From the NCBI GenBank assembly GCA_002305115.1, contig DBQF01000005.1, positions 1 through 53,430 on the forward strand: a stretch of 53,430 bases of DNA, written 5' to 3'. Made by a program: the position numbers and the translations under genes. The notes below the pieces were generated by a model. That model saw nothing but the letters and a program-made list of their open reading frames with translations, had not been told where the DNA came from and did not search any database. The stretch comes from a candidate division WWE3 bacterium UBA1401. GTDB lineage: Bacteria; Patescibacteriota; WWE3; UBA101185; UBA10185. Below, one piece after another: positions 1-53,430 of this stretch; position 1 is the stretch's first letter, and each line of letters begins with the position of its first letter.

Positions 1-428
1 CCTGCTGAAAGCGGTTTACGACCCGAAGGCCTTCATCCCGCACGCTGCGTCGCTGCGTCAGGCTTTCGCCCATTGCGCAAGATTCCCAATTGCTGCCTCC
101 CGTAGGAGTGAGGCCCGTGTCTCAGTGCCCCTCTGCCCGTACATCCTCTCAGACCGGGTATCCGTCATTGCCTTGGTGGGCCATTACCCCACCAACTAGC
201 TGATAGACCATAGGCTCATCCCTAACCAGAAACCCCGCTAAGCGGGGAGACCTTTAGAGTTGCCTCACCATTGGGTATTATCAAGGGTTTCCCCAAGTTA
301 TCCCCAAGTTAGGGGTAGATTCCTATGTATTACTCAGCCGTTCGCCACCCGCCAAAGGCGGGTTCGACTTGCATACTTTAGGCACGCCGCTAGCATTCAT
401 CCTGAACCAGGATCAAATTCTCATAATT
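1..428 (-). rRNA. rrs: 16S rRNA gene, 5' portion (truncated by window start; 5' end approximate)
   Basis: EUB338 site GCTGCCTCCCGTAGGAGT at 92-109. 27F-like site AGAATTTGATCCTGGTTCAG at 421-402 on the - strand. Conserved GCAAGTCGAA...TGGCGAACGG around a short h6. Confidence 0.98.
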
Positions 429-527
429 ATGAAAACTAATATCCCAACTGCACAGTGCTATAAAGCACGGCATAACTGGTTCAATTGAACCAGCCTGCCT
501 GCGCAGGCAGGGATCAAATTCTCATAA
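403..527. repeat. Duplicated 16S 5' end in the leader; the upstream copy is interrupted by a perfect 18-bp palindrome
   Basis: tgaaccag-gatcaaattctcataa at 403-426 recurs as tgaaccag (486-493) + cctgcctgcgcaggcagg (494-511) + gatcaaattctcataa (512-527). Confidence 0.9.
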
Positions 528-550
528 AAAACATTCTTTTCACTTCCAGT

Positions 551-562
551 TTGTCAAAGTGC
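551..562 (-). promoter_or_regulatory. boxA-like antitermination element in rRNA leader
   Basis: GCACTTTGACAA on the - strand between promoter and 16S; resembles the boxA consensus. Confidence 0.45.
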
Positions 563-579
563 AGAGCTTTGCATCGGTT

Positions 580-608
580 AATTTAACAATAATACTTCCA
601 GAAGTCAA
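580..608 (-). promoter_or_regulatory. sigma70-type rRNA promoter
   Basis: - strand TTGACT (608-603), 17-nt spacer ending TGt, TAAATT (585-580), directly upstream of the 16S leader. Confidence 0.8.
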
Positions 609-609
609 C

Positions 610-1911
610 CTATTCTACGCTTACAGTTTCAATGCTATCCGTCTTTAGTAACTTCCCTAATGTTTTTGGCATTAACGTCTTATTCTGTATGGGAAGACAG
701 GTGACAAGCACAATATGTAAAGCATTATATTCCGGCCAAGTGTGTACTGTAAGGTTAGATTGGGATAAAACGTAGGTTAGAGTAAGCCCCTTACCCTTAA
801 ATTTCGTTATCTTTGTGTCCACAACCGAAAGCTTGTGCAGCTTACAAAAATCTCCAAAAACTTTAGTCAGCATTTTTTTAGACTCTACAACTCTTGAAGG
901 AACATTTCTGACTTTGAACACATAGTGATCAACATAAGGGAATGTGTCTTCCACATCTTTCTCGTATGTGTAAATAGTAGTACTAACAGGCTTTTCAGGA
1001 ATGTAAGTCTGTGGAGTTACTTTTAATATATATAAAGAACTCGCACTGCCAATAGATTCTGCTCCAAAGTATCTATTAAACTTATCAATTCTGTCTTCTA
1101 CCAGAAAATTATAATCATTGATTACTTCTTGAATTTTTAAAGTCTTTTCCGGAGATTTAAAGCTATTACCAAAGCATAAAAATAAGTATTTGTTATAACC
1201 CTCCCCCAAAAGCTCCAAACTTCTGCGTACAAAGAGATCAATACCAGATCTAGTATAAGGCGGATCAGTCATTACTACATCAAACCTGGCAGTATAGTTT
1301 TCGGAAATATTTTCTCTGGCATCGTACTTAACAGTTTGAACATTCTTAATACCCAAATCAGAGCATATCTTTGTTACGGAGCTTAAGATGTCATCATCTA
1401 TGTCAAAGACTGTTATGGAACCAAACTTGTCTGTCATTAACGCGAGAGTAATTGAAACTAAATCATCATCTCCGATAAGAGCAATAGCCTTGTCTTCCAC
1501 CATACCCTTGTCCATTAAAACTTTAGCTTTAGACACAGAAGTTTTAATTGTAGCAAAAAACTGGTCATACTCTCTCTTTGGTTCTAATTTATACTTCTTC
1601 CGAATGGTGCTAAGCTTTTGTTCTAAATCAAAATCCTGATATTCTAATAATGTCCATTTGTAGGGCTTTAGATCTAAATCTTTAGGTAAGCCATCAGGCT
1701 TGAAGGTTATTGCATCACCGGTCGGGCTTTCTAAAAAATTGGCAACAGAAACTTTAAAACTGCGCAAAGTCTCTTTTGGCAAGCCCGTGGCTCTAATTAG
1801 CTCAGAACTGCTAATACCCGGATTTTCCTTTATTAAATACAAAATTCCGGCTAGTTCCGCCTTTTTGAGGTAAGGGTTTTTCAATTGAAGTCTGGTTAAC
1901 ATGTCCGACAC
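610..1911 (-). CDS. BpsA/DUF43-like aminopropyltransferase fused to a C-terminal pyruvoyl AdoMetDC (SpeD/SpeH-like) domain
   Basis: IGDDDLVS, FDID and FDVVMTDPPYT motifs (BpsA/DUF43 family). C-terminal LSQ-SNLTVHTWPE...VTC matches the AdoMetDC LAE-SHxxxHTWPE...FTC pattern. Alternative ATG start at 1902. Confidence 0.8.
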   Translation of the reverse strand: MSDMLTRLQLKNPYLKKAELAGILYLIKENPGISSSELIRATGLPKETLRSFKVSVANFLESPTGDAITFKPDGLPKDLDLKPYKWTLLEYQDFDLEQKLSTIRKKYKLEPKREYDQFFATIKTSVSKAKVLMDKGMVEDKAIALIGDDDLVSITLALMTDKFGSITVFDIDDDILSSVTKICSDLGIKNVQTVKYDARENISENYTARFDVVMTDPPYTRSGIDLFVRRSLELLGEGYNKYLFLCFGNSFKSPEKTLKIQEVINDYNFLVEDRIDKFNRYFGAESIGSASSLYILKVTPQTYIPEKPVSTTIYTYEKDVEDTFPYVDHYVFKVRNVPSRVVESKKMLTKVFGDFCKLHKLSVVDTKITKFKGKGLTLTYVLSQSNLTVHTWPEYNALHIVLVTCLPIQNKTLMPKTLGKLLKTDSIETVSVE

Positions 1912-1989: not shown

Positions 1990-4278
1990 ATGAAGTATAT
2001 ACCAATGCTCATTGCACTATGCCTTGTTATAATTATATCTCCTAAAACGTTTGCTCAAGAACCTGTTTACGAAAACATACTAAATATAATGCATCTATCA
2101 AGTATAGAGCCCACACCTTTTGGTATATTGGTTGGAGAAAATAACGGAGCCTTCTGGATGACACCTAGACCCTACAACAGCATTTATCTCACAAGAGACT
2201 TAGGAGCTACTTGGGAAAAACTTAACTTCTCAGACATAGGCGTAACAGACATTAGTTATGAAAACGGCACTATCTATGCCGTTTCCTACTACAGCGCAGG
2301 AACAAAAGCAAGCGGGGCTTATTATTCCGATGATCATGGAGTTACGTGGACATATATTGGCAGACCTACTTCAGCCAAAAAAATACTTGCCTACAAAGGA
2401 GTTCTTTATTACGGAGGCAGTGGCGGCTTATGGCTGTCTAGAGATAAAGGTACAACCTGGGAAGTACAAATACCGGGTCAAGTTTACTCACTAGCAGCGC
2501 ATGAAGGAACTGTTTTTGTTGGCTTACTCACTAGCACATACAGATCAGTAGACAATGGACACGCGTGGCAAAAACTGGAACACCTAAACGGCATAACGGT
2601 AGATAGCTTTGCAGGATATAACAACATATTAATGGGTTCAACTCGAAACTTAGGTATTTATATATCTACTGATTATGGAGCAACATGGCACATACTTGAA
2701 TCATTAAAAGATCAATATGTACGACAGGTTGCAGCGCTTAACAACAAATTCTTTGCGGCCAGACAAATCGGTAATTCAATTAGTTACGAGATTTTGGTGT
2801 CAACAGACTACGGAAATAGCTGGCAATATACAGGCGTATCAACCGAAAGATTTGTTATGGATATGGCAGCATTTCATGGTGAACAAGAAAAGATCTTGGC
2901 TATTGACCAGTATAATGGAGTCTACGCCAGTGACATTCCCAGCTTTGTGGAAACAAAACCCTTATTGGCTATCCCCTGGCAGTACCAAGACGAAAACGAG
3001 CTTATAACCAGAATAACCGCCTACTTTGACCACCAATATCCCTTACTGGGTTATTGGAGATACCCTGAACCATCTATATATAAAGAAACAACACTAAATT
3101 ATCTGGGAAATGAAGATAAGGAACCCTATCTGTATTACAGTTCGCACGACGGCACAGACTTCTGGCTTCCCTACGGCACCCCTATTACGGCGGCTGCTTC
3201 CGGATGGGCAGAATACTTCACATGCGGCGGATGTGGGCACTCCATTAGAATAAAACACCCCAGCGGTTACGAAACTATATATATGCACTTTCAAAACGAA
3301 GGCTTAGTAACTACCAGCAGCATACCACTATGGGTGAATGAAGGTGAGCAGATTGGCGTTGTGGGCATGACAGGAAATACTACAGGCCCACACCTTCATT
3401 TTGCTGTTATTAAAGATCAAGACCCAGACGGCAGAGTAGACCCGTTTGGTTGGCAAGGCTCTGCCCTTGCAGATCCATGGTGGGGGCACACCTGGACAGA
3501 TAGCTTAGGCACACACACCGGAGCAAAGAGCATTTATTTATGGAAAGTATATCCACAAGAAATCAGAGATTACATTAATAGCACAATCAAGACTGTGGAA
3601 TTCCAAAATAAAAAAGTAACTATACAGACAGATGAAAGCTTAACAGTAATAATAAAGCCTTATATTATGCCCATACTTTATAAGTACCAGAATAATTTGG
3701 CATATGTATTTAATACTTCGTTTGTAATTAATCTAGTAGATTATCTAGGCAAAACAAAAGACACACTTGCCAAGGCAGCCACTTTGGAAATAGCGCTGCC
3801 AGCAGAAATAATTGATAAGTTTGTTAGAGATACACTTAAAATAAACTTCTTCAGCGAAACAACCAACACCTGGGAAGAACTACCTACTATTCTAGACGAG
3901 GCAGCCTCAACGGTAAGGGCACAAACAACCCACTTCAGCAAATTTGCAGTGTTTGGTAAAAAACTTGTCACCCCACCTGAAACAACACATACTCTTGAAG
4001 GGGCAACTGAAAAAGGCTGGTTTACAACCTACCCAGTCCTTAGCTTGGCAACTAGTGACCCCACAGACACAATTTTCTTTGCAACGGAAAATGAAGTGTG
4101 GCACACATATACCCAGCCGGTCACACTAGAAAAAGAGGGTAAATACACACTTTCTTATAGGGCAATGGATACAGCAGAAAACATCGAGTCAGTAAAAACA
4201 ATTATAGTTAGAACAGATACACAAGGCGTGTTTAAAAAAACTTTAAAAATAGTTAATTCAGAATTTAACCTGCAATAA
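1990..4278 (+). CDS. Secreted BNR/YCF48-like beta-propeller + M23 metallopeptidase + HFS-motif beta domain + OmpL47-like Ig domain
   Basis: Signal peptide. Repeated SxDxGxTW boxes. M23 zinc motifs HDGTD (3145-3159) and HLH (3391-3399). THFS at 3928-3939. C-terminal YRAMDTAENIE pattern. Confidence 0.8.
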   Translation: MKYIPMLIALCLVIIISPKTFAQEPVYENILNIMHLSSIEPTPFGILVGENNGAFWMTPRPYNSIYLTRDLGATWEKLNFSDIGVTDISYENGTIYAVSYYSAGTKASGAYYSDDHGVTWTYIGRPTSAKKILAYKGVLYYGGSGGLWLSRDKGTTWEVQIPGQVYSLAAHEGTVFVGLLTSTYRSVDNGHAWQKLEHLNGITVDSFAGYNNILMGSTRNLGIYISTDYGATWHILESLKDQYVRQVAALNNKFFAARQIGNSISYEILVSTDYGNSWQYTGVSTERFVMDMAAFHGEQEKILAIDQYNGVYASDIPSFVETKPLLAIPWQYQDENELITRITAYFDHQYPLLGYWRYPEPSIYKETTLNYLGNEDKEPYLYYSSHDGTDFWLPYGTPITAAASGWAEYFTCGGCGHSIRIKHPSGYETIYMHFQNEGLVTTSSIPLWVNEGEQIGVVGMTGNTTGPHLHFAVIKDQDPDGRVDPFGWQGSALADPWWGHTWTDSLGTHTGAKSIYLWKVYPQEIRDYINSTIKTVEFQNKKVTIQTDESLTVIIKPYIMPILYKYQNNLAYVFNTSFVINLVDYLGKTKDTLAKAATLEIALPAEIIDKFVRDTLKINFFSETTNTWEELPTILDEAASTVRAQTTHFSKFAVFGKKLVTPPETTHTLEGATEKGWFTTYPVLSLATSDPTDTIFFATENEVWHTYTQPVTLEKEGKYTLSYRAMDTAENIESVKTIIVRTDTQGVFKKTLKIVNSEFNLQ

Positions 4279-48576: not shown

Positions 48577-49032
48577 ATGCTGTTAGCTAAGAATAGGAAA
48601 GCTTTATATAATCATGAAATTCTGGAAAAGTTTGTGGCAGGACTAGTACTTAAAGGTTATGAGGTTAAGGCTATCAGAGAAGGTAATGTTAGTTTTGAGG
48701 GTGCATATATTGTAGTTAGGGGAAAAACCGCCTGGCTTGTAAATTTAACCATCAGCAAATACTCAAAACAAAGCCAAGATGTTCCGGAAGCTGAGCAGCG
48801 CCGGGACAGACAGCTGATTTTGCATGAGCAGGAAATAAATAAGCTTAGGCAGGAAGTTAGCCAGAAAGGTAAAACAGCAATTCCCTTAGCTTTATTGCTG
48901 CAACATAATTTGGTAAAATTGGAGCTGGCAATAGTAAAGGGCAGGAAAGAATACGAGAAGAAAGAAGTTACAAAGAAACGTCAGATTGAACGGGATTTGC
49001 AACGTGAACGTAAGGGGATGTACGGGCTTTGA
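48577..49032 (+). CDS. smpB: SsrA-binding protein
   Basis: NRKA, GLVLKGYEVKAIR and KGRK motifs; the last 19 nt overlap the tmRNA. Confidence 0.96.
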   Translation: MLLAKNRKALYNHEILEKFVAGLVLKGYEVKAIREGNVSFEGAYIVVRGKTAWLVNLTISKYSKQSQDVPEAEQRRDRQLILHEQEINKLRQEVSQKGKTAIPLALLLQHNLVKLELAIVKGRKEYEKKEVTKKRQIERDLQRERKGMYGL

Positions 49033-49405
49033 TTGAAAGCACTTTGAAATACAAAAGCAAGCCTAGTTTGTTAGCAACTAGCAAAAACTAACACAAGATA
49101 CATGCCGACAGTTTTTCTGAAGACATGGAGCCTGCATTAGTAGGCGCTATGGCTTAAGGTTTTACCTTTAAGCCTGGCCCGGGTTCTTCTTCCCTAGAGG
49201 AGAGCTTTGGGTCTTATAAAACTAGGGTGAGGGAGCTTAACAGCCCAGGTAAGTTTCCAAGAGCGTAGAGCTCAATACTAATGGGCACATGAGAGGTTTT
49301 AGGTTTGCCAAAATACCTTGCTTCTCATTATAATTTTTGGCTAAGCTTGTAGATTTTTGTGTTTGGTCTTTCAAGACGGGGGTTCAACTCCCCCCATCTC
49401 CACCA
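49014..49405 (+). ncRNA. ssrA: tmRNA; tag ORF 49104-49157 encodes (A)ADSFSEDMEPALVGAMA
   Basis: 5' GGGGATG pairs with 3' CATCTCC-A-CCA, including G3-U70. T arm GGGGG-TTCAACT-CCCCC. Resume context AUACAU-GCC and an Ala-ending tag. Confidence 0.93.
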
Positions 49406-52465: not shown

Positions 52466-52555
52466 GGAGGGTTGGCAGAGTGGCCTAATGCAGCGGTTTG
52501 CTAAACCGCGCCCGCTTTTGTGGGCTCACAGGTTCGAATCCTGTACCCTCCGCCA
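52466..52555 (+). tRNA. tRNA-Ser(GCT)
   Basis: GGAGGGT/ACCCTCC acceptor, GCGGT-TTGCTAA-ACCGC anticodon arm, long variable arm, encoded CCA. Confidence 0.97.
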
Positions 52556-53365: not shown

Positions 53366-53430
53366 GTGCCCGTAGTTCAGCGGATAGAACGCAACGTTGC
53401 GGACGTTGAGGTCGGGGGTTCGAGTCCCTC
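53366..53430 (+). tRNA. tRNA-Arg(GCG), truncated by window end
   Basis: GTGCCCG 5' strand, GTTC/GAAC D stem, CAACG-TTGCGGA-CGTTG anticodon arm, GGTTCGAGTCC T arm. Confidence 0.93.

Follow-up and report, generated by a model that had tools for sequence, protein, structure and literature searches.

A BpsA-like domain fused to an S-adenosylmethionine decarboxylase-like domain in a WWE3 bacterium: a candidate bifunctional polyamine enzyme

What reaction could be carried out by a single polypeptide in which a relative of the aminopropyltransferase BpsA is followed by a relative of S-adenosylmethionine decarboxylase (AdoMetDC)? Such a protein is encoded at one end of the window, the whole 53,430 nt stretch of DNA analysed here, from the candidate division WWE3 bacterium UBA1401 (contig DBQF01000005.1). 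The ORF occupies 610..1911, stop codon included, on the minus strand, to which the coordinates of all parts of the gene given below also refer. It starts at a GTG at 1911 and encodes 433 aa; an alternative ATG at 1902 (residue 4) would give a 430-aa form, and the database protein P0001, of 430 aa, is 100% identical to the window ORF. The answer favoured here, with a probability of roughly 70%, is that the protein is a bifunctional polyamine enzyme, in which a self-processing AdoMetDC would feed decarboxylated S-adenosylmethionine (dcSAM) to a BpsA-like aminopropyltransferase; the comparative evidence supports this core reading well.

A preliminary description of this DNA had proposed a fusion of PF01861 and PF02675, and both domains do exceed their Pfam cut-offs within the one ORF; the motif coordinates given there were all exact on recomputation. 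The BpsA_C Rossmann-fold catalytic domain (PF01861; residues 96–299, 1015..1626) scores 133.3 bits (E 1.1e-38) against a cut-off of 27, and the class 1b AdoMet_dc domain (PF02675; residues 329–430, 622..927) scores 50.7 bits (E 2.6e-13) against a cut-off of 25. Each is also found by sequence search of the PDB and by Foldseek. In the former search, BpsA of T. kodakarensis (Tk-BpsA; 5xnc) is matched at 4e-22 and the AdoMetDC of T. maritima (1tlu) at 1e-4. An N-terminal helical, winged-helix-like domain (approximately residues 1–60, 1732..1911) precedes them, recognized from the predicted structure, Foldseek and a weak Pfam match to HTH_24 at residues 23–49. The fusion protein has no Pfam match to PF01564, and every Pfam and NCBIfam match of the ORF to a methyltransferase family is under the cut-off.

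The predicted fold agrees with these assignments. The AlphaFold2 model, for which 82 homologues were used, reaches a mean pLDDT of 90.2, with four helices in the N-terminal domain, and its only soft stretch (pLDDT 66–70) lies between the modules, at approximately residues 310–330. Foldseek comparison of approximately residues 1–340 retrieves the BpsA structures 2qm3 (5.8e-21), 5xnc (1.7e-20) and, from Thermus, 6j28 (8e-17), in an alignment of approximately 340 columns that covers nearly the whole length of the BpsA chain, N-terminal domain included. The C-terminal domain superposes on the T. maritima AdoMetDC 1vr7 over 107 columns (TM 0.80, rmsd 1.9 Å).

The two-domain protein recurs in at least 120 database clusters and across the family to which the window belongs, so the ORF is not a product of chance. 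A 55%-identical homologue, P0005, sits in a 298-member fusion cluster in the Atlas that is mostly WWE3, and the names of homologues also point to this candidate division. Residue conservation was counted over 120 homologues, most of which are 46–62% identical, with one fragment aligned at 63%; the counts out of 120 below refer to this set.

BpsA, N4-bis(aminopropyl)spermidine synthase (EC 2.5.1.128), which forms branched polyamine out of spermidine and dcSAM, is known from structures of the proteins of T. kodakarensis (Tk; 5xnc, 5xnf and 5xnh), T. thermophilus (Tth; 6j27) and P. furiosus (2qm3). The first module of the fusion belongs to the same Pfam family and has the same two-domain fold, although the hosts of BpsA are thermophiles and the host of the fusion is a small-genome member of the Patescibacteria. 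The GDDD motif of Tk-BpsA cannot be dispensed with in catalysis, D159 and D160 position the aminopropyl group of dcSAM, and D225, E259, Y290 and Y316 activate the acceptor amine (PMC12979288). GDDD is kept in the fusion (residues 147–150, 1462..1473), in alignment with Tk Gly157–Asp160; G147, D149 and D150 are invariant amongst the homologues and D148 is found in 119/120, with one D148E. The DPPYT motif (residues 216–220, 1252..1266) is present in 120/120, where Tk-BpsA has DPPET and Tth has DPVEG. D116, D216 and Y281 align with Tk D126, D225 and Y290, respectively, and D216 and Y281 are invariant. The counterpart of Tk Tyr316 is not alignable, and Y314 is a candidate for it. This residue lies in an IYT motif (residues 313–315, 967..975), which conservation and the split homologues described below identify as the C-terminal end of the BpsA-like module. 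In Tk-BpsA, a flexible C-terminal acidic cluster carries the aminopropyl group in a ping-pong mechanism. The fusion, in contrast, has no free acidic tail but continues through a short, flexible acidic linker, E317–D322 (consensus E-x-x-x-E-E, 946..963), into the AdoMetDC domain. This acidic cluster is conserved, lies within the low-pLDDT stretch after IYT, and is missing from split homologues that end near IYT.

The C-terminal domain has the fold of the class 1b AdoMetDC of T. maritima (TM0655; 1tlu, 1vr7 and 3iwb), in which S63, H68 and C83 are essential for self-processing and catalysis (PMC10407285). Ser385, His390 and Cys405 of the fusion align with these residues. The HTWPE motif is kept (residues 390–394, 744–730), and the segment from this motif through Cys405 (699–697) occupies 697..744. 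Ser385, Trp392, Glu394, His399 and Cys405 occur in 120/120 homologues, His390 in 119/120 and Pro393 in 117/120; the invariant His399 is specific to the clade. By alignment, His390 is assigned a role in processing, Glu394 the ribose-binding position and Cys405 the role of proton donor. The Glu four residues after the His contacts the ribose hydroxyls (PMC1282579), and the Pro of HTWPE separates true AdoMetDC from the arginine decarboxylase (ADC) type (PMC10407285).

The predicted self-cleavage site, Gln384/Ser385 (757..762), aligns with Glu62–Ser63 of T. maritima, and Ser385 (codon at 759–757) would become the pyruvoyl group. A cut here would leave 49 residues (385–433), an alpha chain shorter than that of T. 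maritima, from which the fusion further differs in that the domain is tethered behind a 325-aa module. The preliminary description had this chain being released. The predicted cut would indeed form it, but its strands belong to the beta-sandwich, both in the AlphaFold2 model and by the superposition on 1vr7, and the small chain should consequently stay bound. The local sequence reads LSQ-S-N, as against ISE-S-H in the T. maritima enzyme; the alignment thus bears out an earlier remark that Q-S-N stands in place of E-S-H.

Comparison amongst genomes links the two domains further. The query protein is matched in 99 of the 134 genomes of the window's class. Within the window's family, 70/85 genomes have a match, nearly all as full-length fused genes, and a few full-length fusions are found in two sister families also. 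Other families have the match divided over two genes, one BpsA-like (approximately 320–340 aa) and one AdoMetDC-like (approximately 120 aa). The two genes are neighbours in all ten split loci extracted from sister families: the BpsA-like gene is followed by the decarboxylase gene on the same strand in five, often with an overlap, the order is reversed in one, and the genes are convergent in four. The split BpsA-like proteins all carry GDDD, with DPPYT in nine and DSPYT in one, and stop 2–3 residues after IYT, exactly where the acidic linker of the fusion starts. PF01861 is above its cut-off in 22 of 401 sampled genomes of the phylum, 18 of them within the window's class, and two families outside the class have a DPPYT-type gene with an overlapping AdoMetDC-like gene downstream.

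A family without the decarboxylase, f7 (L056–L065), provides a natural contrast. A short BpsA_C protein of the DPPYT type (approximately 205 aa), without the N-terminal domain, is encoded in 10/10 of its genomes and a PF02675 homologue in 0/10, while MetK is present in 7/10. All ten proteins have GDYD or GDFD in place of GDDD and retain DPPYT and (I/V)YT. The middle Asp, which holds the aminopropyl group of dcSAM in Tk-BpsA, is thus lost exactly where the AdoMetDC partner is missing. This fits a dependence of the GDDD-type members on dcSAM made by the partner; the f7 protein may use SAM instead. The contrast between GDDD and GD(Y/F)D bears on what makes the BpsA family use dcSAM. It had been argued in the preliminary description that the fusion serves as Rosetta-stone evidence for an aminopropyltransferase function of DPPYT-type proteins. 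This argument holds, and is strengthened by the adjacent split pairs and by the co-variation of GDDD with the AdoMetDC partner; the DPPYT branch of what was once DUF43 is given a functional assignment that can be tested. A further variant occurs in another family of the Patescibacteria (L036, in genome G454), where a 399-aa BpsA-like protein has GDDD, with TDPTPT replacing DPPYT. No AdoMetDC-like gene adjoins it, and the genome holds three copies of PF01861.

In the mechanism proposed for the bifunctional enzyme, the 49-kDa proenzyme would cut itself between Gln384 and Ser385. This would yield a 43.8-kDa chain, containing the BpsA-like module and the first half of the decarboxylase fold, and a 5.47-kDa chain that carries the pyruvoyl group at its N-terminus and remains bound. 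The pyruvoyl domain would decarboxylate S-adenosylmethionine (SAM), which is probably imported. The resulting dcSAM would be consumed by the neighbouring BpsA-like Rossmann domain, with GDDD holding the aminopropyl group and D116, D216 and Y281 lining the acceptor site. An acceptor amine, most probably a di- or polyamine, would then receive the aminopropyl group, to give a linear or branched product with release of methylthioadenosine (MTA).

The genome that contains the window (846 kb in six contigs, 89.7% complete) has one PF02675 homologue, namely the fusion, which is therefore the only candidate source of dcSAM in this genome. The preliminary description envisaged a one-gene pathway acting on scavenged polyamines. 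In keeping with this, no SpeDC-type homologue, no member of the arginase/agmatinase family and no deoxyhypusine-synthase-like gene is found in the genome. Other genes, however, leave the one-gene idea only partly supported. An MTA/S-adenosylhomocysteine (SAH)-nucleosidase-like gene is present (77.8 bits, under the equivalog cut-off), and a pyridoxal phosphate (PLP)-dependent decarboxylase of 382 aa, resembling lysA and ornithine decarboxylase (ODC) and nearest to lysA (179 bits, under the cut-off), may supply a diamine. There is also a SpeE-like protein of 232 aa with a weak PF01564 match (30 bits), encoded on contig C2, which has GGGT in place of GGG(D/E)G. Judged from gene content, it is SAM itself that seems most clearly to be scavenged.

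Neither of two further candidates was retained as a conserved partner of the fusion. The PLP decarboxylase is found in only 8/134 genomes of the class. The weak SpeE-like gene is found in 119/134, some of them without any AdoMetDC. The PLP decarboxylase gene lies downstream of an LPG_synthase_C-like gene (304 aa), which overlaps it by 4 nt; the pair occupies C2:361556-363613, corresponding to L035:1132-3191. In the closest relative, G106, an LPG_synthase_C-like gene adjoins a SpeDC-type gene instead, and one decarboxylase may have been replaced by another beside it.

Several observations weigh against the proposed bifunctional enzyme. The AdoMetDC domain scores 43.9 with TIGR03330, the NCBIfam AdoMetDC equivalog, under the cut-off of 75.65. 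Amongst the 120 homologues, no Glu precedes the pyruvoyl Ser, the residue there being Asn, Thr, Ser or Gln, and no His follows it, where Asn (114) or Ser (6) stands instead. At position 401 this protein has Val, whereas Asp is found in 105/120 homologues and in T. maritima. In the other module, the Tk-BpsA acceptor residues Glu228 and Glu259 are replaced by Tyr219 and Asn249, the latter at a position that varies amongst the homologues. Three split partners (at L019, L020 and L024) are without the catalytic Cys, which is Gly in two and Ser in one, and the co-variation of GDDD with the partner comes from one clade and hence represents one evolutionary event. Finally, neither the bacterial (TIGR01034) nor the archaeal (PF01941) type of SAM synthetase is found in this 89.7%-complete genome. 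A synthetase is likewise not found in 81/85 genomes of the family (bacterial type in 2/85, archaeal type in 2/85), and single-contig genomes of the family that are 94–99% complete also have neither type. As regards the Cys-less split partners, two of the three read E-S-S, and their activity is doubtful.

Some of these points can be accommodated. Because SAM synthetase is not found, SAM is probably imported by these bacteria, and its supply would then rest on a transporter. The loss of the equivalents of Glu228 and Glu259 means that the acceptor may differ from spermidine. The Glu that precedes the Ser is not listed amongst the essential residues (PMC10407285). As read from the alignments, the fused clade has the x-S-N/S site throughout, and this site spares every residue so listed. 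The SpeD of E. coli cuts at Lys–Ser, and in the human enzyme the pyruvoyl Ser is followed by Ser; the positions flanking the pyruvoyl Ser therefore vary among active enzymes.

The same non-canonical site could be taken to mean that the decarboxylase domain has been neofunctionalized, in the manner of SpeDA or SpeDC, and decarboxylates arginine or ornithine, thus supplying the acceptor rather than the donor. This is very unlikely, even though x-S-N/S replaces E-S-H in all 120 homologues and the score is under that of the AdoMetDC equivalog. Bacteria of the candidate phyla radiation commonly have SpeD homologues with ODC or ADC activity, and the presence of two SpeD homologues in one genome, seen here in 11 relatives, is a flag for such a change (PMC10407285). 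These second copies are, however, informative about where the ODC residues reside. Approximately 20 genomes of the class carry a standalone PF02675 protein (133–169 aa, 86–100 bits), 11 of them together with the fusion. They were recovered through the Pfam model only; phmmer with the fused C-terminal domain as query did not retrieve them. The ten that were extracted (L046–L055; e.g. L050:3088-3504) share IQESH(I/V)S(I/V)HTF ... (V/I)T.D.YSC. SpeDC proteins, which are pyruvoyl ornithine decarboxylases, are marked out by Gln, Thr, Phe and Tyr in their central region (PMC10407285); since that study gives the positions in a figure only, they were assigned here by alignment. At the four positions occupied by Q, F, T and Y in the standalone paralogues, the residues of the fused domain are S383, W392, H399 and V403, i.e. 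0/4 of the SpeDC signature.

The standalone proteins, in turn, are without the Trp, Pro and Glu of HTWPE, whereas the fused domain keeps Trp392, Pro393 and Glu394, the Pro speaking against the ADC type. Where both coexist, the standalone copy looks, by its residues, like an ornithine decarboxylase and the fused copy like an AdoMetDC. Were the fused domain an arginine or ornithine decarboxylase, the genome would also have no source of dcSAM for its GDDD-type transferase. An altered decarboxylase specificity, raised as a possibility in the preliminary description, is thus unsupported: the relatives' paralogue has all four ODC residues and the fused domain none. Neighbours of the standalone genes include a deoxyhypusine-synthase-like gene (G096 and G072), an EamA transporter gene (G078 and G056) and an alanine-racemase-fold PLP decarboxylase gene (G072). 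The SpeDC-type paralogues, which occur in the window's own family, and the neighbouring deoxyhypusine-synthase-like genes set the fusion in a polyamine context. In SpeD–SpeDC double-pyruvoyl fusions, a class 1b SpeD domain is able to self-process inside a larger protein (PMC10407285). The fusion described here differs from these, and from standalone SpeDC, in that its pyruvoyl domain is without the Gln/Thr/Phe/Tyr signature and its partner is a transferase, not a second decarboxylase.

A different possibility concerns the Rossmann module, which could act on a macromolecular amine (an rRNA or tRNA base, or a protein) as an N-methyltransferase or aminopropyltransferase. This would account for the DPPY motif and for the place of the gene beside a 16S rRNA gene. 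DPPYT resembles motif IV, (D/N)PP(Y/F), of N6-adenine and glutamine methyltransferases. The next structural neighbours behind BpsA in the Foldseek search are the rRNA m6A methyltransferase METTL5 and DIMT1; there are weak, sub-threshold Pfam and NCBIfam matches to RsmB, RsmD and N6-adenine methylases, and the winged-helix-like N-terminal domain and the conserved 16S synteny point the same way. BpsA, however, matches ten orders of magnitude better and covers the N-terminal domain, the winged-helix domain belongs to ordinary BpsA proteins, and the methyltransferase families are all under their cut-offs. In place of the glycine-rich motif I the module has GDDD, which goes together with an AdoMetDC partner, and the split gene pairs lie away from rRNA genes. 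A macromolecular target is accordingly judged improbable. There is also little likelihood that the AdoMetDC-like domain is a non-catalytic structural or dimerization module, the BpsA-like domain taking dcSAM from elsewhere or using SAM: although an AdoMetDC–aminopropyltransferase fusion that has lost AdoMetDC activity and kept the domain for dimers is known (PMC12803844), and the neighbours of the cleavage site are non-canonical and the Cys is missing from some split partners, the purifying selection seen at Ser385, Trp392, Glu394, Cys405 and His390 would be unexpected for a scaffold, and the genome is without another PF02675 homologue.

If the fusion is indeed a self-processing AdoMetDC joined to an aminopropyltransferase, it resembles known bacterial proteins in which a class 1b AdoMetDC is fused to a SpeE-type transferase. 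Both activities have been shown in these, and animal spermine synthase descends from one (PMC12803844). They likewise bring together dcSAM-making and dcSAM-using enzymes in one polypeptide. In the SpeE-type fusions, however, the transferase is PF01564 and the AdoMetDC is N-terminal, whereas here the transferase is PF01861 (BpsA) and the AdoMetDC is C-terminal. Because the transferase family differs and the domain order is opposite, the BpsA–AdoMetDC fusion is an independent invention of the same idea; the AdoMetDC–aminopropyltransferase fusion has arisen a second time. Literature searches found no paper describing a BpsA–AdoMetDC fusion. That WWE3 bacteria appear to keep a polyamine step though most cannot make SAM hints at needs that are met from the surroundings.

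A bolder version of the bifunctional enzyme would make a polyamine that is branched or unusual in some other way, in an episymbiont that is non-thermophilic and auxotrophic for SAM, with the acidic linker as a covalent aminopropyl carrier and the 16S position coupling polyamine supply to ribosome synthesis. This combination is offered tentatively and is, on balance, unlikely. The role suggested for the linker, which would pick up the group on the decarboxylase side and deliver it at the transferase site, is modelled on the acidic C-terminal tail of Tk-BpsA. If this were true, branched-chain polyamines would not be a speciality of thermophiles.

The window starts inside a 16S rRNA gene, the 5' part of which (1..428, minus strand; Rfam) lies downstream of the fusion gene on the same strand, with 181 nt between the stop codon and the 5' end of the 16S gene. 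A same-strand 16S gene follows the fusion gene in 12 of 16 family loci (Rfam), at gaps of approximately 250–950 nt. For many other fusion genes the distance to a contig end is 0.5–1.2 kb, which would be expected of assemblies that break in the rRNA. The arrangement is not seen in the closest relative (61% identity), and none of the split-gene loci or of the partner-less f7 loci adjoins an rRNA gene, which makes the 16S arrangement specific to the fused clade. The preliminary description had placed the gene next to an rRNA promoter. The 16S synteny is real, but the promoter is a consensus match only: the sigma-70-like TTGACT-17-TAAATT at 608–580 is of a kind no commoner than in shuffled sequence.

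The spacer itself (429..609, minus strand) contains promoter-like hexamers, a structured leader and a second copy of the 16S terminus. The leader is much more strongly folded than shuffled sequence (z = -3.9), and a scan found no terminator between the fusion gene and the 16S gene. The 5'-terminal sequence of the 16S rRNA, TTATGAGAATTTGATCC (RNA strand), recurs approximately 110 nt upstream in the leader (window 410–537), and the repeat flanks two perfect palindromes, at 494–511 and 471–488. The 16S rRNA gene of one relative (G131) contains a group I intron (Rfam RF00028, 61 bits; L027:277-615).

On the other side of the fusion gene, a divergently transcribed gene (1990–4278, plus strand) encodes a 762-aa protein. 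As read by eye, its N-terminus looks like a signal peptide, the motif D-x-G-x-T-W (BNR-like) recurs, and an HxxxD...HLH region is similar to M23 peptidases. Towards the far end of the window there is a tmRNA (49014–49405) with the tag ADSFSEDMEPALVGAMA, followed by tRNA-Ser(GCT) at 52466–52555 and, at 53366, another tRNA that is cut by the window end.

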